From contig CAWJPW010000008.1 in the NCBI GenBank assembly GCA_963844845.1, forward strand, positions 192,257-256,256: a DNA stretch of 64,000 nucleotides, given 5' to 3'. Shown here one piece after another: positions 11,485 to 64,000 of the stretch. Source of the stretch: an uncultured Acidobacteriota bacterium. Lineage in GTDB: Bacteria > Acidobacteriota > Thermoanaerobaculia > Thermoanaerobaculales > Sulfomarinibacteraceae. The number at the start of each line of letters is the position of its first letter. The stretch's first letter is position 1. The notes below the pieces were generated by a model, which worked only from the letters and a program-made list of their open reading frames with translations, was not told the origin of the DNA and did no database searches. The position numbers and the translations under genes are program-made.

Positions 11485-11909
11485 GATTCGCTCCTTTCCG
11501 GACGGTCGCCATCAAGTATAGGTCCTGTACCCGTAAAGAGCGAGCCCCGGAAGATCCAGCAACGACGGCGCAGGAGGCAGCCGGCGGCCTCCTGTAGCCG
11601 CGTCCGGACCAGCGCGCTGAGCTGCGTCACGACCAGGGGATCGGAGGCCGCGCTCGCCGGGTACCCGTCGGTCCGCACGGGCTCGAGCCCCACCACCTCC
11701 GCCCGGAACCACCCCCTCGTGCGGTGCACCCCCGCACCCGACCCGCCGTCGTCGTTCGCCACGTCGGAGTCGGTGGCAACGTACAGGCCGCCGCCATCCA
11801 CGGTGGTCCCACCAGCGGATGCCGCCCGCGCGAGGACAGGGCCACCGTCACGGCGGCAGTCGCCTTGCAAAGATCAAACGAGAATGCGATCATATCTCGA
11901 AGAAGACTC

Positions 11910-14900
11910 ATGACTCGGTACGTCCAGAAGCCGGGCCGGGTGGAATCGACCTGTTGTCGCCGTCGTCACCTGCAACAGTACCAACGGGCCGCATTCCGCA
12001 AGAGGGTCCCGATACGAGCCCTACTGCTGGTGCTCGCGGCGCTGATTCTCTGCACGGCGAGCGCTACCACAGAGGAGCTCCCGCCGACTGGGGGCACCAT
12101 CGCGCTCAGCGGAGACTCTCCCACCGTGTCGACCGTGGGGCTCACCACCGGAGAGCTTCTCAACGTGGTGCTCACGCCCGACGGGCTCGACCTGGCGGTG
12201 CGGGTGCTGGGACCGGCCGGACGCGAGCTGTGGGCGGCCAACGACGCACCCTCCACCACCCTCGAGGAGAAGGTCTGGCTGGTGGCGCCGGCGGCCGGCA
12301 CCTACCGCGTCGAGCTCACCTCCCACGACGGCGCACCCGGCACCGTCCACGTCGCCAGCGTCGTGCAACGTCCCGCCACCGCAGCCGACCGCCTGCGGGT
12401 TCGCGCCGAGCGTCAGCTGCAGATCGCCCGCCGAGCACTGCGCACCCGCGGCGAAGGACTCCTGGCGGACGCACGCGAGGTGCTCGACGAGGCGGCAACC
12501 AGCTTCGCCGAGCTGAGCCTGCCCCGGCGCCTGGTCACCGCGAAGCTCCTCGCCGCCATGGTGGAGCGCGTACAGGGTGACCCGGCGGCCTCGCGGGCAC
12601 GGGCCGAGGAGGCGCGCCGCGCGGCCGTGGCGGCCGACTACCCCGTGGGCGAAGGCGCGGCCCTCAACAGTCTCGCCATCGGCTGGTGGGCTTCCGGGGA
12701 CATGGAGCAGGCACACTCCGCCGCAGCGGCGGCAGTGGCGGCCTACCGGCGCGCGGGCTACCGCCTGGGCGAGGCCGAGGCGCTCAACACCGTGGGCCTC
12801 ACCGCCAGCCGGCTCGGCGACCTCGACGAGGCCGAGGAAGCCTACCGCCAGGCGGCCGGGCTCTTCACCGAGATCGGCAACCTGGGCGGCCTGCTGTACG
12901 CCCGCAACAACCTGGCGGTGGTTCGCCTGGAGCGCGGCGAGTACGACGCCGCCATCGCCACCTTCGAGGAGGTGGCCGACGCCCTTGCCGCCCGCGGCGA
13001 CGACGCCGCCCGGGCCACGGTCCTCATGAACGTCGGCTCCGTGCTCAACGATCTCGGCGACCTCGACCGCGCGCGCCGCCATTTCGAGCGGGCGCTGACA
13101 CTGCTGCACGGTCTCGGCGCACCTGCCCGGGAGGCCGCCGTCCTCACCAACCTCGGCAGCAACGCTGTGCTGGCAGGCGACAGCGACACGGCGCGCGGGG
13201 ACTACCGGCGCGCGCTGACCCTCTACCGGCAGGCCGGCGATCGCGCCGGGGAGGCCACCGCGCTGCACAGCCTGGGCGATCTCGCGCTGCGCGAGGAGCG
13301 TTTCGCCGCGGCCCGCGACACCCTCCTGGAGGCGTTGACGATCCGCCGCGAGCTCGCACTGCCCCGTGACGTCGCCTCGACGCTCACCAGCCTTGGCGAG
13401 GCCGACATCGCGCTGGCCCGGCTTCCGGCGGCGGAGGGAGAGCTCGCTGAAGCCACCACCATCACCACCACCCTCGGCGACCCCGAAGGGGAGGCGGTGG
13501 CGCGCGACCAGCTCGCCCGCCTCGCCCTCGCCCGCGGCGACCTCGCCACCGCAGCGGCGGAGGCGGATCATGCCATCGCCCTCATCGAGTCGCTGCGCGC
13601 GCGCCTCGCCAGCGATACCCTCCGCTCGACCTACCTGGGCATGCAGCGCGGGCTGTTCGAGCTGGCGGTGACGCTTGCTGTCAGGCGGGCGCGCGACGAT
13701 CCCGGCGGCGGGCACCTGGAGCGGGCCTTCGCGCTCAGCGAGCAGGCCCACGCGCGCTCGCTGCTCGATCTCCTGGCCCCCGACCGTCCCGCCATCGCCG
13801 CCGCCCTCGATCCCGCCCTCGCCGCCCGCACCGCCCGCCTCGAGCAGGACATCGCCAGGCTCCAGCGTCAGCTCATCGACCTCCGCCAGGACGAGACCCC
13901 CGATGCCAACGCCGTCACCTCCACCGAGCAGCGCTTACTGGCGACCGTGGACGAGTGGCAGTCCGCCCGCGCCGGGGCCCTCCGCAGCGGCTCTCCCCTG
14001 GTCTCCCTGCTGGATCCGCCGCTGGCGGGCACGGACCGGGTCGCCACCCTGCTGGAGCACGGCACCGTGCTGCTCGAGTACGTGGTGGGGGATGACACCT
14101 CGACACTCCTGCTGGTAGATCGCACCGGCGTGGCCGCGTTCCCGCTTCCCTCCGCCGGCGAGCTGACCCCCCTGGTGCACACCCTGCGCGACGAGCTCGC
14201 ACAACCCGCGGCGCGGGTGTCCGGAGCCTACCTGCGCGCGGCGCGCCGCCTCTTCGAGCTCCTGGTGGCGCCGGCGGCGCCCCGTCTCGAGGGCGCCGAC
14301 GAGCTCGTCATCGTGCCCGACGGCCCTCTCCACCTCCTGCCCTTCGAGGTCCTTCTCACCGCTCCCCCCCGCTCCACCGATCCCCGGCAGCTCCCCTACC
14401 TCCTGCGACAATGGCGAGTCCGCTACGCACTCTCGGCCAGCATCCTGGCCGAGCTCGCGGAACGACCCACCGGCCCCCGCCCGTGGGACCTGGTCGCGGT
14501 GGCCGATCCCGCCGGCAGCGAGGAGCCGGCGGCGGCCGGCGACGAGCGCGCCCTGCTCCTCGACGCCGGCCGGTGGCGCCAGGGCGGCCTCCCCGAGGCG
14601 CGCCGCGAGGCCGCCCGCATCGCCGGGCTCTTCCCCCCCGGGCGCACCTGCGTGCTCGAGGGTGAGGCGGCCACCGAGTCGGCGGTGAAGGGCAGTCAGG
14701 CCGTCGCCGCGGCGCGCTATCTCCACTTCGCCGCCCACGGCGTGCTCAGCAGCCGCCTCGCCACCCACAGCGGACTGGTGCTGGCGCGGGCCCCGGGAAG
14801 CGGCGACGACGGGCTCTTGCAGGCGTGGGAGGTGTACGACCTGCACCTCGACGCCGACCTCGTGGTGCTTTCCTCGTGCGGCTCGGGCCTCGGCGAGGCG

Positions 14901-26998: not shown

Positions 26999-27026
26999 AT
27001 TGTGCGCGAAACGTCCCGACGTTCAA
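26999..27026 (-). promoter_or_regulatory. Putative czcD promoter with palindromic operator in the spacer
   Basis: Minus strand reads TTGAAC-GTCGGGACGTTTCGCG-CACAAT. The spacer contains a perfect 6-2-6 inverted repeat, AACGTC GG GACGTT (27009-27022). Confidence 0.4.
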
Positions 27027-27049
27027 AGGACCGGAGGTCCCAAGGCGCC

Positions 27050-27432
27050 GAACCTCGGCCCCGGTCGCGGCGCCGGCCCCGGACACCGCGTCGGCTCCTG
27101 ATGCTCCCAACCCCGGCTCCCGGGCGGCGGCCTTGCCGCCGCCCGTCGGCGCGGCCCCGGGGGCGGCAACGGCACACGCAGGCAGACGGCAGCACGGCCG
27201 TCCCCGGGCCCTGCGCCGAGTCGCCTCCCTGGTCGCTCGGAGCAAGTACTCCGAACGCCAAGGGCCGTGGGAGCCCCCCATGACGTTTCCCGCGAACGCC
27301 CTCCCGGCGAGGAAGCGCTCCCGGGAAAGCGTCATGGACGGCACGCCCGCCGGAGGACACCTTCTCCGGAGGACACCTGCTCCGCGGCGGTATCGGACGC
27401 GGCCGCGGTCCCCGTCCCGGCCCCGGACGCTG
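27050..27432 (+). repeat. Repeat family 1, copy 1 (core about 27098-27390), structured non-coding element
   Basis: Block-wise identity with 33086-33357 (minus) and 63297-63570 (plus). Frame-breaking indels between copies; hairpins conserved with compensatory changes; flanked by GGNCCN-type hexamer runs. Confidence 0.8.
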
Positions 27433-27569
27433 TCAATGGCACCGGCGCGCGGACGTGCCGACCGGGGACCTCCTCCGACCTTGCCAGGAGGAGACCGGGC
27501 GTGCGAGACTACCCGCGCTCGACGATGGCGAGAAGCGACTGCCGCGCAGGCGCATGGGACACATACGGG

Positions 27570-29249
27570 ATGACACGAGTACTCCACGCCGTAGCCGCCA
27601 CGGCCCTCCTGGCCGGGCTACTCTTCATGACCGCCGGCTGCCGACCGGGTGCAGGCACGCAGGTCGGTATCGCCCCACCCGACGACAGCCTCGAGCAGGG
27701 CGATACCCGCCACGAGGCCCTCGCCGATGCGGACGTCGGCAAGTGGATCACGGTTTGCGAGCCGGAGGCCTGCTTCAACGGCTATACGCTCGCGCTCTTC
27801 CGCCGCCGGATCCCCATGCTGGTCGACCTCAACGGTCGGATCGTGCACTCATGGCCTCGAGTCCGCGCGGTGGCGCGTACCCGGCTCAACCCGGACGGAA
27901 CCCTCACGGTCGACGGTGTCGACAACTACCTCAAGGAGTACTCGTGGGGCGGCCGGCTCGACTGGTACTACCGCCCGGCCAACGAGGAGGATCTCCTCCA
28001 CCACGACTTCTTTCGTCTCGCCAACGGCAACTACCTGCTCCTCCTACACGAGGCACCGGGTCGGCTCGACAAGCTGATCGAGGTCGACCGCTCGAAGCGG
28101 GTGGTGTGGTCGTGGCGGATTGCCGACCACCTCGGCGTCGACTTACCGCAGGCCGATCGCTCGTCGCACGACCCGACCCACTGCAACTCGGTGCAGGAGC
28201 TACCGCCCAACCCGCACTTCGCCGCCGGCGACGAGCGCTTCCGCCCCGGCAACATCCTGGTAAGCGCGCGCAACCTCAACTGCATCTTCGTCATCGACCG
28301 TGAGACCGGCAAGGTGGCCTGGCGCTACGAGGACAGCCTCGACTACCAGCACGAGGCCCGCATGATCGCCTCCGGAAACGTGGGAGAAGGCCTCATCGTC
28401 GTCTTCGATAACGGCTACAACAACCGCGAGGCCTACCGGCGATCATCGGTCCTCGCCATCGACCCGGTGGAGCGCCGCGTGGTGTGGCGCTACGCCGCCG
28501 ATGGGTTCTTCTCCTCGGTCGCCGGCACCGCCCAGCCGCTACCCAACGGCAACGCGCTGATCAGCTCGAGCCAGGGCGGGCGCATCTTCGAGATCACGAC
28601 CCAGGGGCACGTCGTGTGGCAGCTCGAGCCGCCCTACCTGCCCATGCGCGCGCGCCGCTACCCGGCGGACTACTGTCCGCAGCTCGAGCGCCTCAAGCCC
28701 CAGCCCCTCCACGCCGTCGCCCGCTCCGACACGCGCCCGTTCATCGACCAGGAGCTGTACGCCTACACCCTCCCCGAGGAGCACCAGACGATCAGGGACT
28801 TCCACGGCAAGACCCGGAGGCTGGTACGGGAGCCCTCGAGCTGCCGCGTGCTGTGGCTGCCCCCCAGGCCGCAGATGGTCCTCGCCTACGGTCTCGACGC
28901 GGGACCGTTGGGGCCCGCCAGCGTGAAGGGTCTCTTCCGCGCCACCCTCGAGCCGCTCGCCGGAGGCAGGCTTCGGGTGCTGCTCGACGACGAGGTCGAC
29001 TCGTCCGATCAGGAGCTCTGGCGGGAGCGCAGCATCCTTCTCGACGGTCTCGGCTACCAGAAGGTCCGGCTCTGCCTGGACGCCCGTTGGGAGGGCGACC
29101 TCGGCGAGCGGCAAGGCGACCGCATCGTACGCTGGCAGAGCCCGTGGGTCGGCAGCCGGGTCAAGCCCAAGCCGACGCCGGAGCCCGAGCTCGACCGCGA
29201 GCGCAAGCTCCGCGCCCAGCAGCTCAAGACCATCGGCTACCTGCAGTAG
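27570..29249 (+). CDS. Arylsulfotransferase (ASST/Arylsulfotran_2)-like beta-propeller lipoprotein
   Basis: ORF 27267..29249 trimmed to ATG 27570 (MTRVLHAVAATALLAGLLFMTAGC lipobox). Motifs: HHDFFRLANGNYLLL, THCNSVQ, NILVSARNLNCIFVIDRETGKVAWRY, VVFDNG. Extra C-terminal region of about 200 aa ending QQLKTIGYLQ. Confidence 0.7.
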   Translation: MTRVLHAVAATALLAGLLFMTAGCRPGAGTQVGIAPPDDSLEQGDTRHEALADADVGKWITVCEPEACFNGYTLALFRRRIPMLVDLNGRIVHSWPRVRAVARTRLNPDGTLTVDGVDNYLKEYSWGGRLDWYYRPANEEDLLHHDFFRLANGNYLLLLHEAPGRLDKLIEVDRSKRVVWSWRIADHLGVDLPQADRSSHDPTHCNSVQELPPNPHFAAGDERFRPGNILVSARNLNCIFVIDRETGKVAWRYEDSLDYQHEARMIASGNVGEGLIVVFDNGYNNREAYRRSSVLAIDPVERRVVWRYAADGFFSSVAGTAQPLPNGNALISSSQGGRIFEITTQGHVVWQLEPPYLPMRARRYPADYCPQLERLKPQPLHAVARSDTRPFIDQELYAYTLPEEHQTIRDFHGKTRRLVREPSSCRVLWLPPRPQMVLAYGLDAGPLGPASVKGLFRATLEPLAGGRLRVLLDDEVDSSDQELWRERSILLDGLGYQKVRLCLDARWEGDLGERQGDRIVRWQSPWVGSRVKPKPTPEPELDRERKLRAQQLKTIGYLQ

Positions 29250-29270
29250 GAATGTGGCGGCTGGTTCGCG

Positions 29271-31760
29271 CTAGAGGTAGCCCAGCGTCTTGAGCCGCTG
29301 GCGCTCCTCGTCACTGAGCGTGCGCTGCGGAACGGGCGTGCCCCGCTCCGCAGCCGCCGCGCCCACCAACGCCTCGAGCTCGCGGGCGAGCGCCTCGGTG
29401 CGGTCACGGTGCTCCCCCGCGAGGTTCTCGTGCTCGCCGGGGTCGCGGCCGAGATCGTAGAGCTCCTCCCGCCCCGCGGGCAGGCTGAGGATGTACTTCT
29501 CGTTCCCCACCAGCAGGCCGCGCCGGTCCACCGCGGCCTCGGGTCGGTAGGTCGCCAGCAGCACCGGCGGCGACGGCTCGTGCGCGGCGCCGAGCATGAG
29601 GGGGGTGAGGTCGCGCCCGCGCCGGGTCCCGAGGTCGTCGAGGCGCAGCAGCCGATCGACGGTGGGCAGCAGGTCGAGGTGGGAGACGACGTCCGGCACC
29701 ACCGTCCCGGCCGGCAGCGTGCCGGGGAAGGAGACGATCAGCGGAACGTGGACCTGCGCCTCGTAGAGCTGATCCACGTGCGCCATCTGCACGTGGTCGC
29801 CCAGACCCTCGCCGTGGTCGGCGGTGAGCACGACGAGGGTATGGTCGAGGAGGCCGCCGGCGCGCAAACGCTCCATGAGGAGGCCGAGCTGGCGGTCGGC
29901 GTACTCCACCTCGCGGCCGTAGGCCGCCCGCTTCTCCGCCTTCGTGTGCTTCTCCTCGCACACGAAGCGAAGCTGAGCGGTGACCGGACCGCCGGTCGGG
30001 TTCTTCAGGGTCACCGCCACCGGCGGGCGCGCGAGCAGCGCCGGGTTGCGCGGGTTGACCGTGCCGGTGGACCAGCCTGCGCCGGGCGCCATCGCAATCT
30101 CCGGCGGGTCGACCGAAACGTAGCGGAAGCTCAGCGGCCGCTCCTGCCGCGGCCCCGCAGGGAGCAGCATGAGGCGGTTCGACCCGGGCCTCAGCTCGAG
30201 GTCGAGGGTCACCATGCGCCCGTCGGCGTGGAAGCTCCCGACGGGCCGGCCGTCGAGGCGGACACCCACCTCGGGGTAGGCCTCGTCCGGCGGTGCGTAG
30301 GGCTCGTGCGGATCGCTGTAATGGACCCAGAGGAAGAAAGGCTCGGCGGGCTCGGCGTCGAGCCAGGCGAAGACCTCCCGGTTGACCTCGCCGGCATCCT
30401 TCCACCAGTCCGCTCCGAAGCGGTCGCCGTAGCTGTCGAAGCCCTGGGCGATGCCGTAGGTGGCCGAGAGAACGCCGAGGCTGACGAAGCCGGCGGTGGC
30501 GCGGTAGTTGTCCCGCAGCACCTCGGCCAGCGTGAGCTCCCTGGAGGGCAGGAGGCCGCCGTTGTTATGAACCCCGTGCTCGGCGGGCACCTCGGAGGTG
30601 AACATGGTGGAGTGGCTCGGCAGGGTGATGGGAATGTGGCTGTACGCCCGTGCGAAGCGCACCCCCGAGGCCGCCAGGGCGTCCATGTTCGGCGTCGACG
30701 TGCTTCCCCCGTAGCACGAGAGGTGGTCGGCGCGTAGCGTGTCCACAACCACGAGCAGCAGGTTGGTCCGTGCGTCGACCCGGGCGGCGTCGGCGAAAAG
30801 CCGCGGCCGGCGCCACCACACGGCCTCGCCCGGCGATGCGCCCCGGAGCCGGAGCACCACCTCGACCCGCTGACCGGCGAGGGGTCCGAGCGCGATCCGC
30901 CAGCGCTTGCGGGGCAGGTGGCCCAACGGCGCCTCGGCGACCAGCTGCTCGCCCCGCTCCCGGTGGCGCACCCACACCTGGGCGCGACCTTCCCGGGAGG
31001 CCGGGCCCCCGGCCGGAGCCACGCCGATCTCGAGAGACCCCCGAGGCGGTACCAGGAGGGGGAAGGCCACCTCCGTACCGCTCGCCTGCACGAAGCCGTC
31101 GTCCCGGCGCACGGGATCGGGCGCCGCTGCTGCGCCCGGGACCGCCAGATCGACGGCATAGAAGGCGGCAGCCAGGGGCCGGGTGTCCGACGACCCCGGG
31201 ATCCGGTCGGCCGGGCGCTCCGCCCAGGCAAAGTCGAAGCGCAGGTGACGGTCAGGGCCGAGAAGCTCTTCGGGCACCGGCAGCCGGTAGGTGGCGAGCT
31301 CGGGACCCACCGTCACGTCGCCGAGGACGCCATCGCCCAGCGCCACGTGCACGACCTGCGGCGGCGCCCCCTGGTACGCGAACGCCCGGCAGGTGAAGGC
31401 GAGCTCCACGCCCGGGGCTCGAATGACCCGGGCCGCCACCTCGGCGGTGGTCCCGATGGCCCAGGCGAAGCCGCGCCCGAGCGTCGGGTCGGACTCGAGC
31501 TCGCTCCAGCCCACCCCGAGCAGCTCGCGGTCGCCGGGGGTGCTGAAGCGGACGTGCTCCTCGGTGCGGCGGACCACCGCCTGGTCGAGGCGCCGGTCGA
31601 GGCGGAGCACCTCCGCGAGGCCCTGCGACGGCACCGCGTCGGCCGCGACCCGAGTCGCCGGTCGGAGCCCGAGAGTCGCCTCGCCCCGCCCGCCACAGCC
31701 TCCCGCCGCCAGCAGCAACGTGACGGCGAGGATGACAGACCAGAGACGGCGCACGGCCAT
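29271..31760 (-). CDS. Sulfatase-fold (alkaline phosphatase superfamily) hydrolase/transferase lipoprotein with large N-terminal domain
   Basis: ORF 29271..31781; likely start MAVRRLWSVILAVTLLLAAGGC (31760). Motifs: LLLVVVDTLRADHLSCYG, SHIPITLPSHSTMFTS (Thr at the nucleophile position), LTADHGE. Ends RQRLKTLGYL. Confidence 0.85.
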   Translation of the reverse strand: MAVRRLWSVILAVTLLLAAGGCGGRGEATLGLRPATRVAADAVPSQGLAEVLRLDRRLDQAVVRRTEEHVRFSTPGDRELLGVGWSELESDPTLGRGFAWAIGTTAEVAARVIRAPGVELAFTCRAFAYQGAPPQVVHVALGDGVLGDVTVGPELATYRLPVPEELLGPDRHLRFDFAWAERPADRIPGSSDTRPLAAAFYAVDLAVPGAAAAPDPVRRDDGFVQASGTEVAFPLLVPPRGSLEIGVAPAGGPASREGRAQVWVRHRERGEQLVAEAPLGHLPRKRWRIALGPLAGQRVEVVLRLRGASPGEAVWWRRPRLFADAARVDARTNLLLVVVDTLRADHLSCYGGSTSTPNMDALAASGVRFARAYSHIPITLPSHSTMFTSEVPAEHGVHNNGGLLPSRELTLAEVLRDNYRATAGFVSLGVLSATYGIAQGFDSYGDRFGADWWKDAGEVNREVFAWLDAEPAEPFFLWVHYSDPHEPYAPPDEAYPEVGVRLDGRPVGSFHADGRMVTLDLELRPGSNRLMLLPAGPRQERPLSFRYVSVDPPEIAMAPGAGWSTGTVNPRNPALLARPPVAVTLKNPTGGPVTAQLRFVCEEKHTKAEKRAAYGREVEYADRQLGLLMERLRAGGLLDHTLVVLTADHGEGLGDHVQMAHVDQLYEAQVHVPLIVSFPGTLPAGTVVPDVVSHLDLLPTVDRLLRLDDLGTRRGRDLTPLMLGAAHEPSPPVLLATYRPEAAVDRRGLLVGNEKYILSLPAGREELYDLGRDPGEHENLAGEHRDRTEALARELEALVGAAAAERGTPVPQRTLSDEERQRLKTLGYL

Positions 31761-31790
31761 GGCGCCCGAGTATACGCCCACGGGCGTACC

Positions 31791-32981
31791 TCACCCGCCG
31801 TCGGCGACGGCCGCGCCCAGGCGTTGGGCCAGTGCCGCGGCGGCCTCCGGCCAGCCAGGCGGTGGGGTCGCCACTGCGGAGACCCTTACCCAACCGGGGG
31901 CGCCGAAGTCCTCGCCGGGCCAGAGGCCGACGCCGTGGCGCCGGGCGAGGCGCACACACCACTCTCGCGACGTGCCGACCCCGGCGCGCTTCAGCAGCGG
32001 CCCGATGTCGCACCACAGGTAGAAGCCACCCTGCGGCATCGCGGCGGTCAGGCCGGCGGCGGCGAGGGCGGCGCGGACCCCGGCCAAGCGCTCGCGCACC
32101 GCCGCGCGGGCGGCTTCGCGGTACGCCTCGGGCACCTCGGGCAGCCGCACCAGGGCGCGCTGGACGTGGGTGTTGGGCGGGTTGAGGACCTGCGCCTGGA
32201 AGCCCGCCACCCGCGCGACCATCGACGGGTCGGCGGCAACCCAGCCCACCCGCCAGCCACAGGCGGCGTAGCTCTTGGACGCAGAGCGCAGCTGCACCAC
32301 GGTGTCGAGGGTCGGGTCGAACCGGGCCGGCAGGGTGTCGCTGCCGGACGCGAAGCGGAAGGCCTCGTATGCCTCGTCGCTCACTAGACGAAGGCCGTGC
32401 TCGCGGCACAGCTCGACCAGAGAGCGCGCTTGCTCACCGGTGAGCGTGGCGCCGTCGGGGTTGGCCGGTGAGGATAGCACCAGCGCCCTGGTGCGCGGGG
32501 TGATCGCCCGCGCGAGCCGCCCGGGTTCCCAGTCGAACCGCCCGCCCGGCTGCTGCACGCCCACCGCTCGCGCGCCCAGCAACCGCGCCACCGCCGGGTA
32601 GGCCGGGTAGCATGGCACCGGGTGGAGGAGCTCGTCGCCGGGAGCGAGGATGGCGCCGAGCACCGCCAGGATACCGGCCTTGGCGCCGTGGGTGACCATC
32701 AGCTGGGCGGGCGCCAGGGCCTGGCCCTCGCGGCGGTGCGCCTCGACGAGCGCGTCACGCAGCGCCGGTAGCCCCAGCGGCGGAGCATAGTCGCGGGCCG
32801 GCTCCAACGCCGCTTCGCGCAACGCCGCGGCGAGTTCGTCGGGCGCCGCGAAGCACGGCGTGCCCACCAGCCAGGCGTGCGGCGTTCCGGCGAACTCCGC
32901 CAGCGCCGCGACCACGTCGTCGACGGCGCGCGACGCCAGCGCCGGCAACCGCCCGGGGGATGGGGAGCCATCGGGTGTCAT
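31791..32981 (-). CDS. Class I/II pyridoxal-phosphate-dependent aminotransferase
   Basis: ORF 31791..33071 trimmed to ATG 32981, because the longer form runs into the repeat element. PLP-Lys motif RSASKSYAACGWRVGW; LSSPANPDG. Confidence 0.85.
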   Translation of the reverse strand: MTPDGSPSPGRLPALASRAVDDVVAALAEFAGTPHAWLVGTPCFAAPDELAAALREAALEPARDYAPPLGLPALRDALVEAHRREGQALAPAQLMVTHGAKAGILAVLGAILAPGDELLHPVPCYPAYPAVARLLGARAVGVQQPGGRFDWEPGRLARAITPRTRALVLSSPANPDGATLTGEQARSLVELCREHGLRLVSDEAYEAFRFASGSDTLPARFDPTLDTVVQLRSASKSYAACGWRVGWVAADPSMVARVAGFQAQVLNPPNTHVQRALVRLPEVPEAYREAARAAVRERLAGVRAALAAAGLTAAMPQGGFYLWCDIGPLLKRAGVGTSREWCVRLARRHGVGLWPGEDFGAPGWVRVSAVATPPPGWPEAAAALAQRLGAAVADGG

Positions 32982-33035
32982 CGGCGATCGAGTGTATCGT
33001 TCAAACGTTCGAACGTCTCCCCCGCCCGGGCCGTA

Positions 33036-33450
33036 GGCAGGGTCTGCGTCCGGGACCGGGGCCGGGGCCACGACCGGGGCCGCGGCCGCCCCGGAGCAGG
33101 TGCCCTCCGGCGGACGTGCCGTCCATGACGTTCTGCCAGGAGCGCCTCTTCACACGGAGCGCGTCTGCGGCAAACGTCATGGGGGGCAATCACGGCCCTT
33201 GGCGCCCGGAGAAGTGGCCCCGAACGACCAGGCAGGCGACTCGGCGCAGGGGCCCGGGGGCGGCCGTGCTGCCGTCTGCCTCCTCGTGCCGTTGCCGCCC
33301 CCGGGGCCGCGCCGACGGGCGGCGGAGCCGCCCGGGAGCCGGTGTCGGGAGCATCAGCGACCGGCGCGGTGGCCGGGGCCGCGACCGTGGGCCGCGACCG
33401 CGGCCGGGGCCGGTACCGGGGCCTGGGCCGCGGCCGGGACCGTCAACCGG
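33036..33450 (-). repeat. Repeat family 1, copy 2 (core about 33086-33357, inverted orientation)
   Basis: The reverse complement aligns block-by-block with copies 1 and 3. One hairpin uses three G-U pairs that exist only in this orientation. Confidence 0.8.
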
Positions 33451-38369: not shown

Positions 38370-38387
38370 TCCCCTTCCCGACCCCCA

Positions 38388-38416
38388 GATTCGAAGATTC
38401 AAGGATTCAAAGATGA
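38388..38416 (-). promoter_or_regulatory. AT-rich triple motif (ATCTTTGAATC CTTGAATC TTCGAATC on the minus strand), 18 nt upstream of the fatty-acid CoA ligase start
   Basis: Plus strand GATTCGAAGATTCAAGGATTCAAAGATGA. Complementary to the motif pair at 38559-38597. Confidence 0.5.
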
Positions 38417-38558: not shown

Positions 38559-38597
38559 TAATCTTTGAATCTTTATATCTTACCATCTTTGAATCAC
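38559..38597 (-). promoter_or_regulatory. Two direct GATTCAAAGAT 11-mers flanking a TATAAA box (minus strand)
   Basis: Minus strand reads GTGATTCAAAGAT-GGTAAGATATAAA-GATTCAAAGAT-TAAGG. GC is far below the window average. Confidence 0.5.
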
Positions 38598-46390: not shown

Positions 46391-46575
46391 GATTCCCAAG
46401 TCCGAGCAGCTCGTCGAGCTTCGTCGCGAGACCGCGGAGGTGCCTGTCAGCGTGGTGATCCGAACAAGGCGGACCCAGAGGCGCAGCAGCGCTCCGTCGA
46501 GGACTCCGCCGCCGGGAGGAGCGCCGCGATGGCAGGTGCATCCGCGGGCGCAGGAGATGCTCGGCGAGGTGCCCG
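46391..46575 (+). repeat. Repeat family 2, copy A (about 175-nt structured element)
   Basis: Aligns with 56205-56392, 63594-63735 and 63826-64000. Shared core: CTTCGTCGCGAGACCGCGGAGG...GGTGATyCGAmCAAGG...GCCGCCGGGAGrAGCGCC. Confidence 0.8.
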
Positions 46576-56204: not shown

Positions 56205-56392
56205 CGTCGAGCCCCCATGTCTCGCCAGTCTTCGTCGCGAGACCGCGGAGGTGCCCATCAGCATGGTGATTCGACCAAGGAGCCGCCGCAGGCGTAGCAG
56301 CGCTACGTCGAGGACGGCGCCGCCGGGAGAAGCGCCGCGATGGCGGGTGCATCCGCGGTCGCAGCAGAAGACTGGCGAGACATGGGGGCGAC
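56205..56392 (+). repeat. Repeat family 2, copy B (complete, closed by a perfect 22-bp stem)
   Basis: CCCCCATGTCTCGCCAGTCTTC (56212-56233) is the exact reverse complement of GAAGACTGGCGAGACATGGGGG (56367-56388). Inner stem: GACCGCGGA/TCCGCGGTC. Confidence 0.85.
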
Positions 56393-63164: not shown

Positions 63165-63193
63165 GGGCCCGGCGCAACGCGCCGGGCCCTTTT
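63165..63193 (+). terminator. Rho-independent terminator of the EF-G gene
   Basis: GGGCCCGGCGC AAC GCGCCGGGCCC followed by TTTT. Confidence 0.8.
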
Positions 63194-63247: not shown

Positions 63248-63575
63248 CCGGTCCCGGTCCCGGTCACGGTCACGGCCGCGGCCACCGCCCCGGTTGCTGA
63301 TGCTCCCGACACCGGCTCCCGGGCGGCACAGCCGCCGGGCGGCGCGGTCTCGGGGGCGGCAGCGGCACCGGCTGGGAGACGGCAGCGAGGCCGCCCCCGG
63401 GCCCCGGCGCCGAGTCGCCTGCGTCGTCGTTCGAGGGCACTAATCCGAGCGGAGTACCCGCGGATTGCCACCCATGGCATTTCCCGCAGGGGCGCTTCGA
63501 GTGAGAAGACGTTCCCGGGAAGATGCCATGGGTGGCACGTCCCGCCGAGGGAGACCTGCTCCGGGGCGGCCTCGG
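63248..63575 (+). repeat. Repeat family 1, copy 3 (core about 63297-63570)
   Basis: Aligns with copies 1 and 2. 5' flank is a hexamer run: CCGGTCCCGGTCCCGGTCACGGTCACGG. Hairpin CATGGCATTTCCCG/CGGGAA(G)ATGCCATG carries two compensatory pair changes relative to copy 1. Confidence 0.8.
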
Positions 63576-63593
63576 CCTCCTGTCTCCTCCCAT

Positions 63594-63735
63594 CTCACAA
63601 GCCCGCGGGTCTCGGTGATCTTCGTCGCGAGACCGCGGAGGCGCCGGTCAGCGTGGTGATCCGACCAAGGCGGAACCGGAGGCGTAGCCCAGCTACGTCG
63701 CAGGCAGCGCCGCCGGGAGAAGCGCCACAATGGCC
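63594..63735 (+). repeat. Repeat family 2, copy C (3'-truncated or diverged)
   Basis: Shares GGGTCTCGGTGATCTTCGTCGCGAGACCGCGGAGG...GGTGATCCGACCAAGG...GCCGCCGGGAGAAGCGCC, then loses similarity. Confidence 0.7.
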
Positions 63736-63825
63736 TCCTCCGCCCCCGGCATCGCCCTCACAGGAAGGACCGGCGTCCTCCGAGTCCCCGGACCACCTCC
63801 CTCGTCCCCCTCCTCCTCTCCCCCC

Positions 63826-64000
63826 GGTTCCCAAGCCCGCGGGTCTCGCCGGGCTTCGTCGCGAGACCGCAGAGCCGCCTGTCAGGGTGGTGATTCGACC
63901 AAGGCTGCGCCGAGGCGTAGCCCAGCTACGTCGCAGGCGCAGCCGCCGGGAGAAGCGCCGCCCTGACTGGTGGATCTGCGGTCGCAGCAGACGACCGGCG
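63826..64000 (+). repeat. Repeat family 2, copy D (runs off the window end)
   Basis: The inner stem has a compensatory change (GACCGCAGA/TCTGCGGTC versus GACCGCGGA/TCCGCGGTC in copy B). The closing stem is only partly visible before the window ends. Confidence 0.75.

Follow-up and report, generated by a model that had tools for sequence, protein, structure and literature searches.

A structured, non-coding intergenic repeat in the genome of an uncultured Thermoanaerobaculales-like bacterium

What is the GC-rich block of about 300 nt that lies between czcD and an ASST-like gene in an uncultured Acidobacteriota bacterium (Thermoanaerobaculia; Thermoanaerobaculales; Sulfomarinibacteraceae), and why does the same block recur beside unrelated genes? 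We analysed a stretch of 64,000 nucleotides from assembly GCA_963844845.1 (contig CAWJPW010000008.1, positions 192,257 to 256,256, forward strand), hereafter the window, to which all coordinates refer. Its G+C content is 72%, and its EF-G-like protein has its nearest named homologues in Thermoanaerobaculales / Acidobacteriota metagenome-assembled genomes (MAGs), at 70-78% identity. A preliminary description of this DNA had recognised a non-coding, structured, repeated element and had offered two identities for it, a 5' leader or riboswitch-like RNA and a REP/MITE-like repeat. With modest confidence, we now read the element as an old, lineage-specific interspersed repeat whose hairpins are selected; any action that it has would be that of a structural RNA module at the borders of operons, within read-through transcripts. 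By analogy, its nearest functional company would appear to be the ERIC, CIR and MITE-type repeats.

Repeat finding and an nhmmer profile of the aligned copies place three copies in the window, where the profile has no other match:

27085-27385, plus strand: copy c1 (nhmmer E 2e-79)
33075-33370, minus strand: copy c2 (nhmmer E 5e-86)
63284-63580, plus strand: copy c3 (nhmmer E 1e-80)

The repeat search pairs 27074-27369 with 33091-33387 (inverted, 75-87%), 33203-33389 with 63265-63451 (inverted, 86%) and 27056-27257 with 63255-63451 (direct, 75-82%). A 25-nt block is common to the copies, with three occurrences where shuffles predict 0.00. The core sequences of c1 and c2 are 86.5% identical, whereas c3, the most divergent copy, is 74-79% identical to the others, and divergence from copy to copy in the family is 13-26%. 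The count of three in the preliminary description is therefore confirmed by the repeat search and the profile together (E 1e-79 to 1e-86); the shared blocks that it listed are all found in the copies, and the 1-nt indels that it had noticed are real (GGGCCCT against GGGCCCCT, with one additional C in c3).

An independent short-read contig, L001 (Logan, ERR11523667), is identical to window positions 27333-32892 over 5,560 nt. Because of this identity, and because an orthologous copy is present in a second genome (below), we do not regard the element as an assembly artefact. The left end of the contig (27333) falls inside hairpin P4 of c1 and its right end (32892) in unique coding sequence, 155 nt before c2; the idea that both ends are repeat-induced breaks was dropped on account of the right end. 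The contig thus confirms the sequence and gives no clear word on copy number.

Each unit is built from a 5' (CGGNCN)n array, a core of about 290 nt and a 3' array of the same orientation, and a complete unit, arrays and core together, measures 330-410 nt. The core starts near CTGATGCTCCC and ends near CCTGCTCCGGGGCGGC. The parts were delimited with nhmmer, a hexamer scan and Tandem Repeats Finder (TRF), as follows:

27055-27097, plus strand: 5' hexamer array (CGGNCN)n of c1, about 7 units (TRF rows 27055-27095, hexamer scan)
27098-27390, plus strand: core of c1 (nhmmer, consensus fold, pair counts), with direct repeats at 27111-27128 and 27374-27390
27391-27435, plus strand: 3' hexamer array of c1, 8 units, with an end, CGGACGCTG, like that of c2 (hexamer scan)
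33371-33442, minus strand: 5' hexamer array of c2, about 12 units (TRF period 6, 11.8 copies; hexamer scan)
33086-33370, minus strand: core of c2, five hairpins as in c1 (nhmmer), with direct repeats at 33071-33102 and 33313-33344
33035-33088, minus strand: 3' hexamer array of c2, 9 units, with the end CGGACGCAG (TRF, hexamer scan)
63248-63296, plus strand: 5' hexamer array of c3, 8 units (TRF row 63248-63275, period 6, 95% matches; hexamer scan)
63297-63580, plus strand: core of c3, without a 3' array and with a repeat of a second family from about 63583 (nhmmer, pair counts)

The 5' arrays vary in length from about 40 to 72 nt, while the 3' arrays of c1 and c2 measure about 45-55 nt and end in CGGACGC(T/A)G. 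Hexamer runs had been said to bracket every copy, which holds for both sides of c1 and c2 and for the 5' side only of c3. By TRF and the hexamer scan, long hexamer arrays in the window are confined to the flanks of this family, always in the orientation of the element. Within the core lie subterminal direct repeats of about 20 nt (CACCnGCTCCnGGGCGGC); those of c3, at 63308-63327 and 63551-63570, are 85% identical.

The fold was predicted from, and tested on, one four-sequence alignment, comprising c1, c2, c3 and the orthologous copy of the second genome (locus L002). It consists of five hairpins, given here with their positions in c1:

27121-27145, plus strand: P1, 11 bp in c1 and 8 bp in c2
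27146-27219, plus strand: P2, a stem of about 20 bp, nearly all G-C
27234-27257, plus strand: P3, from the consensus fold
27278-27337, plus strand: P4, about 60 nt long and enclosing an inner helix
27350-27384, plus strand: P5, with a 16-nt unit tandemly duplicated in c1

Standard pairs are formed in 94.4% of pair cells, against 41-49% when the partners are slid by 1-3 columns. Both partners are changed in seven pairs; the slid controls have 1-4 such pairs and shuffles 3.0 +/- 1.3, with only 2 of 500 shuffles reaching seven. Three of the compensatory pairs are in P4 (A-U to G-C, G-C to A-U and C-G to G-C): the two changes already noticed in c3 are present, and c2 adds the C-G to G-C swap. The bulged G of P4, also noted before, occurs in every copy, with its position shifting by 1-2 bases, and the reported difference in the length of P1 is equally real, the 3 additional bp being supplied by matched GGC/GCC insertions, one per arm. 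Substitution rates are 8-20% in paired and 22-41% in unpaired columns in six of six pairwise comparisons (Fisher p 0.03 to 0.0003), so that unpaired columns substitute 2-3 times more often than paired ones. Moreover, the single copies fold more stably than dinucleotide shuffles (z -2.7 to -5.5), and G-U intermediates are seen at conserved pairs of P2, P3 and P4. On the forward strand, G-U cells outnumber C-A cells by 36 to 8 overall and by 10 to 4 in the helices predicted on both strands; an attempt to name the transcribed strand from these counts was dropped, as they are biased by the strand used for prediction and weak on the shared helices. The 16-nt tandem duplication in P5 (27350-27384, CCGGAGGACACCTKCT x2.2 by TRF) is found in c1 only, and since the orthologous copy lacks it, it arose after the two genomes split.

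The second genome is the MAG GCA_975902885.1, which encodes an 80%-identical homologue of the ASST-like protein beside the same czcD neighbour, with a 592-bp gap between them that holds a complete copy of the element (L002:1409-1713). It is the only syntenic relative at the czcD/ASST gap, and the site there is occupied; in more distant relatives, the non-coding DNA is not alignable with the window. The c1 core is 82.6% identical to its orthologue when the two gaps are compared (85.0% in the set of pairwise core identities), whereas four-fold-degenerate sites in both flanking genes are 61-64% identical between the same genomes and the unique intergenic flanks about 80%. The hexamer arrays, at 47-72% identity and with differing lengths, are less well kept: the 5' array of c1 is poorly conserved (47% with an 11-nt gap), and the segment of the 3' array is 72% identical with 12 gap columns. 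The core of c2 is also 86.6% identical to the L002 copy. From these identities, it appears that the family is old, that the copies are not recent duplicates and that the core has diverged less than synonymous sites close by. The compensatory changes, the lower rate of substitution in stems and the conservation of the orthologue beyond synonymous sites show that the hairpins are kept by selection. The preliminary view of the element as non-coding, structured and repeated is thus supported by pairing, double changes, stem-biased conservation and the lack of codon periodicity reported below.

The distribution of the element is narrow. Neither it nor the second repeat family is present at seven EF-G-syntenic loci of relatives whose EF-G is 75-78% identical (L007, L008 and L013-L017), and in six of these seven only 84-181 nt separate EF-G from the next gene; these short gaps indicate that c3 and its neighbouring repeats are lineage-specific insertions. 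The loci of distant neighbour-gene homologues (L010/L011, L012 and L018) show no synteny. DNA pattern scans gave one chance match, in an Actinomycetota coding region, among 185,579 species-representative genomes, four chance matches only in the JGI metagenomes (L003-L006) and no match in IMG/VR. By blastn, PLSDB plasmids gave no match and GenBank phages only a 40-nt match to a hexamer array, and neither a P4 covariance model nor nhmmer profiles found diverged copies in about 120 kb of collected and about 170 kb of related sequence. Rfam 15 has no match at gathering thresholds anywhere in the window, and the comparison of each copy that had been proposed at the outset, made at E<=10, returned only sub-threshold chance matches (mir-941, chrB-b, MIR1883 and similar). 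A hammerhead ribozyme, suggested by the 5' CUGAUGC motif, was discarded in the absence of any Rfam ribozyme match even at E<=10.

The three copies have only their intergenic position in common. Copy c1 sits in a 590-bp gap between the divergent genes czcD (cation efflux) and the ASST-like lipoprotein gene, and c2 sits between a family III CoA-transferase gene, the last of a beta-oxidation cluster, and a class I/II aminotransferase gene, both on the minus strand. Copy c3 lies 55 nt past a terminator-like hairpin of the EF-G-like gene, with two copies of the other repeat directly after it and at least 430 nt downstream that hold no gene. A divergent gap, an operon junction and a place behind a terminator favour an interspersed repeat over a shared regulon. 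By Pfam, the open reading frames (ORFs) of the window are ordinary chromosomal genes. Four sites beside the copies, read from the sequence, bear on how the copies might be transcribed or on what lies between them and the genes:

26999-27026, minus strand: candidate czcD promoter/operator, TTGAAC-N16-CACAAT over the near-palindrome GAAACGTC/GACGTTC
27481-27510, plus strand: candidate ASST promoter, TTGCCA-N18-GAGACT, between c1 and the ASST start codon
33004-33015, no strand assigned: perfect palindrome ACGTTCGAACGT, with c2 on one side and the start codon of the aminotransferase gene (32981) on the other (TRF row 32998-33016)
63165-63193, plus strand: intrinsic-terminator-like hairpin, a 10-bp GC stem followed by TTTT, after EF-G and upstream of c3

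The putative czcD promoter block, between czcD and c1, is about 80% conserved in L002, and the consensus scan made no call there; the putative ASST promoter block is nearly invariant in L002. The hairpin after EF-G was not called by the scan, its T tract having only four T. Consensus scans for promoters and terminators found nothing in the three copy regions, nor beside real genes, and are uninformative in this genome. A sigma-54 promoter at TGGCACG in c3 was rejected because the GG-N10-GC spacing is wrong.

Several other explanations have to be set against an interspersed repeat, and two of them concern the genes themselves. We find it hardly credible that the element is a degenerate or very small protein gene, encoded by the ATG frame in P4 (MTFPANALPARKRS...) or as Gly-Pro-rich peptides of the hexamer arrays. 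That P4 frame is open for at least 22 codons in four of four copies, and some long frames across the copies are free of stops; the earlier statement that every shared frame has stops was overstated, as c1 has stop-free frames. However, the 22-codon frame has 7, 8 and 12 variable columns, of 22 each, at codon positions 1, 2 and 3, which is no clear third-position excess, and it lacks a Shine-Dalgarno sequence, a conserved stop and a Pfam match (E<=1). Variable columns show no codon 3-periodicity in any gap-free segment of the element, the copies are separated by indels of 1, 6 and 10 nt, the stop-free frames have no Pfam match at E<=1, and gene calling left the orthologous gap in the relative's contig empty; the compensatory changes are accounted for by the hairpin. 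Frameshifting indels, the lack of 3-periodicity and the lack of Pfam matches are our reasons for treating the element as non-coding. A cis-regulatory 5' leader or riboswitch of the downstream gene, one of the two identities first proposed, is largely refuted, and we consider it very improbable. The element is large, conserved and structured, c1 and c2 do point to the next start codon at the distances first reported (180 and 105 nt), and c1 has been kept upstream of the same gene in the relative. Yet c1 precedes the gene of an ASST-like lipoprotein and c2 that of an aminotransferase, which are unrelated, c3 stands behind a terminator with no gene to lead into, and candidate promoter or operator sites would intervene between element and gene at c1 and c2. 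Nor was any terminator/anti-terminator or Shine-Dalgarno-sequestering platform found, in a genome where the scans are uninformative, and homologues of ASST (59% and 43% identity) and of the aminotransferase (56%) occur elsewhere without the element upstream. Unrelated contexts, intervening sites, the position of c3 and the missing platform together lead us to set aside a riboswitch or shared leader.

The remaining alternatives accept the structure and differ on what it serves. The copies could be a multi-copy family of structured non-coding RNA (ncRNA) genes of a Thermoanaerobaculales-like lineage, each transcribed independently from its own promoter. This we judge unlikely, even though the orthologous copy at the same site exceeds four-fold sites in identity (82.6% vs 61-64%), compensatory changes and stem-biased conservation extend to every copy including the oldest, c3, and the forward strand is richer in G-U than in C-A cells. 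The nearly equal divergence of paralogues and orthologue (85-87% identity) is likewise what would be expected if most positions were constrained. Against it, no promoter- or terminator-like site stands at a fixed position in or beside the copies, by our reading of the sequence and by consensus scans of the limited value just stated, and 5' arrays of variable length would put an upstream promoter at a variable distance. Absence from the relatives sampled at 75-78% EF-G identity is a narrower range than is usual for a functional ncRNA, both strands fold comparably, and a second family that behaves in the same way in this genome points to repeat biology. Somewhat less probable still is a role at the level of DNA, either as a (CGGNCN)n-bounded cassette moved or recombined by a site-specific enzyme or as a binding platform for nucleoid proteins. 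The restriction of long arrays in the window to the flanks of this family, in its own orientation, is consistent with such a role, as are hairpins that form equally well on both strands, the arrays that flank other cargo, PF05635 genes, in two related genomes (L007 and L018), and the possibility that c1 occupies an untranscribed spacer between divergent promoters. However, no recombinase or transposase gene lies beside any copy, array length is unstable even between orthologues, as in ordinary microsatellites, and the G-U intermediates in P2, P3 and P4 suit RNA pairing better than DNA pairing.

We therefore return to the interspersed repeat, which itself has several observations to contend with. 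Near-identical copies are lacking, so that past mobility is only inferred, and Pfam found no transposase, integrase, RAYT or TnpB among all long ORFs of the 64-kb window. A repeat search of each copy found no specific terminal inverted repeats; the quasi-palindromic hexamer arrays, 71-82% complementary, are the only inverted likeness at the ends. The reverse strand folds at least as well as the forward strand (alifold -143.5 vs -137.1 kcal/mol), and folding therefore fixes neither the functional strand nor whether the element works as RNA or DNA. If the czcD and ASST promoters are rightly placed, c1 is upstream of both and may be untranscribed. Support for the structure comes from four sequences that also yielded the prediction, and the high conservation over synonymous sites, together with paralogues that are as divergent as the orthologue, would suit a host-encoded family of functional RNAs as well. 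All of these weigh against an interspersed repeat and temper our confidence in it.

With these reservations, we suggest the following course of events. In an ancestor shared by this genome and GCA_975902885.1, copies would have spread to 'safe' positions between genes, a step that is shown in part, and the family, judging by its 13-26% divergence, would now be old and no longer recently active. Copies would be carried into read-through transcripts of the adjoining operons, where a stable multi-hairpin RNA could act as a barrier to 3' exonucleases, as a processing site or as an insulator between transcription units; the behaviour of ERIC in Yersinia, the best case among such repeats, is our model.

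Small bacterial repeats of about 100-200 bp yield highly base-paired transcripts, and ERIC sequences, transcribed together with the genes beside them, change the stability of the mRNA according to their orientation (PMC2229807). ERIC/IRU and the element are alike in being multi-copy, intergenic and non-coding, with imperfect hairpins that show compensatory change. By description, ERIC is set apart: it is a 127-bp sequence of Enterobacteria with one long hairpin and short terminal inverted repeats. The element, 72% GC and from an acidobacterial host, combines five hairpins in a core of about 290 nt with subterminal direct repeats and flanking hexamer arrays. The resemblance, drawn by analogy, is functional only. 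Wilson and Sharp in 2006 reportedly argued along similar lines from the conservation of ERIC above that of neighbouring synonymous sites.

Bacterial MITEs such as Correia/NEMIS and RUP share with the element a small size, a non-autonomous appearance and a dispersed, lineage-specific distribution, and transcripts of the MITE type are predicted to fold stably (PMC2229807). Like a MITE, the element is small and multi-copy and shows no transposase or integrase Pfam domain in the ORFs of the window or in its own open frames, and c3 is an insertion relative to related genomes, as a MITE would be. Unlike a MITE, it has direct rather than terminal inverted repeats at its ends, and its copies are old and 13-26% divergent, not near-identical; a parent insertion sequence is not known. 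REP, BIME and REPIN sequences resemble the element in being extragenic, GC-rich and hairpin-forming, in lying at operon ends and between genes, and in their proposed roles in mRNA 3'-end protection and transcription insulation. REP units are 20-40-bp palindromes with a GTAG or CGTC tag (PMC3733652). The unit described here is ten times larger and has five different hairpins, and REP sequences are tied to a RAYT transposase, which the 64-kb window lacks. CGTC does occur within the P4 stem of c1, c2 and L002 and is lost in c3; because it lies inside the stem and is lost in one copy, it is not a conserved terminal tag. Of the two identities first proposed, the REP/MITE-like one appears the better, tempered by the lack of clean terminal inverted repeats and of a transposase in the window.

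In the NIME/dRS3 arrangement of Neisseria, a short repeated sequence borders variable cargo at both ends. Here too, different cargos share one type of boundary (the cores of this family, and PF05635 genes in relatives), but the boundaries are direct hexamer microsatellite arrays of variable length instead of 20-bp inverted repeats, and no link to a phage integrase was seen. The large structured RNAs OLE, ROOL, GOLLD, HEARO and raiA are, like the element, hundreds of nucleotides long, multi-helical and of narrow phylogenetic range; they are mostly single-copy or tied to specific neighbour proteins, in contrast to a multi-copy element in unrelated contexts. Since the terminal inverted repeats, the REP unit size and tag, and a score above the Rfam thresholds are all lacking, no named family fits, and the element is a new sequence family. 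What sets it apart is its size with the layout of five hairpins, the direct repeats near its ends and the hexamer arrays beside it.

Structured interspersed repeats are well described in Proteobacteria and Firmicutes, and a full-text literature search found no report of such repeats for Thermoanaerobaculia-like Acidobacteria. In kind, the element will not surprise a specialist, and it opens no long-standing question. It does mark a narrow lineage, it accounts for the trouble that assemblies and gene callers may have with these GC-rich intergenic regions, and it is a clean case of hairpins outlasting synonymous sites, which bears on the co-option of repeats by their hosts.

Another repeat family, unrelated to the first and about 175 nt long, is present in four plus-strand copies:

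46395-46570, plus strand: between convergent genes
56206-56381, plus strand: upstream of a PALP-enzyme gene
63596-63771, plus strand: in tandem with the next, directly after c3
63830-64000, plus strand: in tandem with the preceding copy

Each folds as a single long imperfect hairpin, with nine pairs showing changes on both sides. The family has no Rfam match and is absent from the relatives examined. A second structured repeat family in the window indicates that this genome carries such elements in general.

Hexamer arrays also adjoin genes in two relatives. In L007, (CACGGA/CACGGT)n arrays at 183-242, 786-863 and 1028-1147 flank a PF05635 gene at 415-765, and a long hairpin at 866-1030, with arms CCCCTGTCATCCCGAGCGGAGCGAGG / CTCGCTTGCTCCGCTC..GGGATGACAGGTGGGG, lies between two of the arrays beside that gene. 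In L018, a (GCAGCG/GCCGCG)n array at 11834-11881 adjoins a PF05635 gene at 12032-12406; the hexamer unit differs. PF05635 is the 23S rRNA intervening-sequence protein / Avd-like four-helix-bundle family. A degraded PF05635 gene as the origin of the element was rejected, its open frames having no Pfam match. From their sequence, arrays around PF05635 genes may point to array-bounded cassettes in the clade. Such arrays, flanking other genes, are the sole hint of anything beyond an ordinary repeat; of all the features described, only the hexamer arrays, which bound the core here and unrelated genes in relatives, might open a new direction. We entertain, as a long shot, that the element is cargo of an undescribed Thermoanaerobaculales-like cassette system bounded by hexamer arrays; either the arrays would be mobilised or recombined, or the core would be a selected multi-copy ncRNA with the arrays as a protein-binding or processing platform.

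Palindromic ACGTTC/GAACGT motifs adjoin the start of czcD (27010-27027, GAAACGTCCCGACGTTC) and that of the aminotransferase gene (33004-33015, ACGTTCGAACGTTTGAACG), and a related genome has a run of ACGTTCTAACGTTC... (L018, about 12610-12650). These palindromes may be a shared operator or promoter-proximal motif; as they stand on opposite sides of c1 and c2, they are not part of the repeat. Two AT-rich octamer repeats lie about 150 nt apart in the beta-oxidation cluster, where the acyl-CoA synthetase gene meets the gene for hydroxyacyl-CoA dehydrogenase: AGATTCAA x3.5 at 38387-38414 and its inverse, AATCTTTG x4.5, at 38560-38595; as a pair, they look like operator sites. Finally, the ASST-like gene call (P0001, 582 aa) starts at a GTG at 27501, 23 codons before an ATG at 27570 with which a classical lipoprotein signal peptide (MTRVLHAVAATALLAGLLFMTAGC) begins. 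In the relative, the call takes the ATG as its start and gives 559 aa, and the 582-aa call is probably over-extended.

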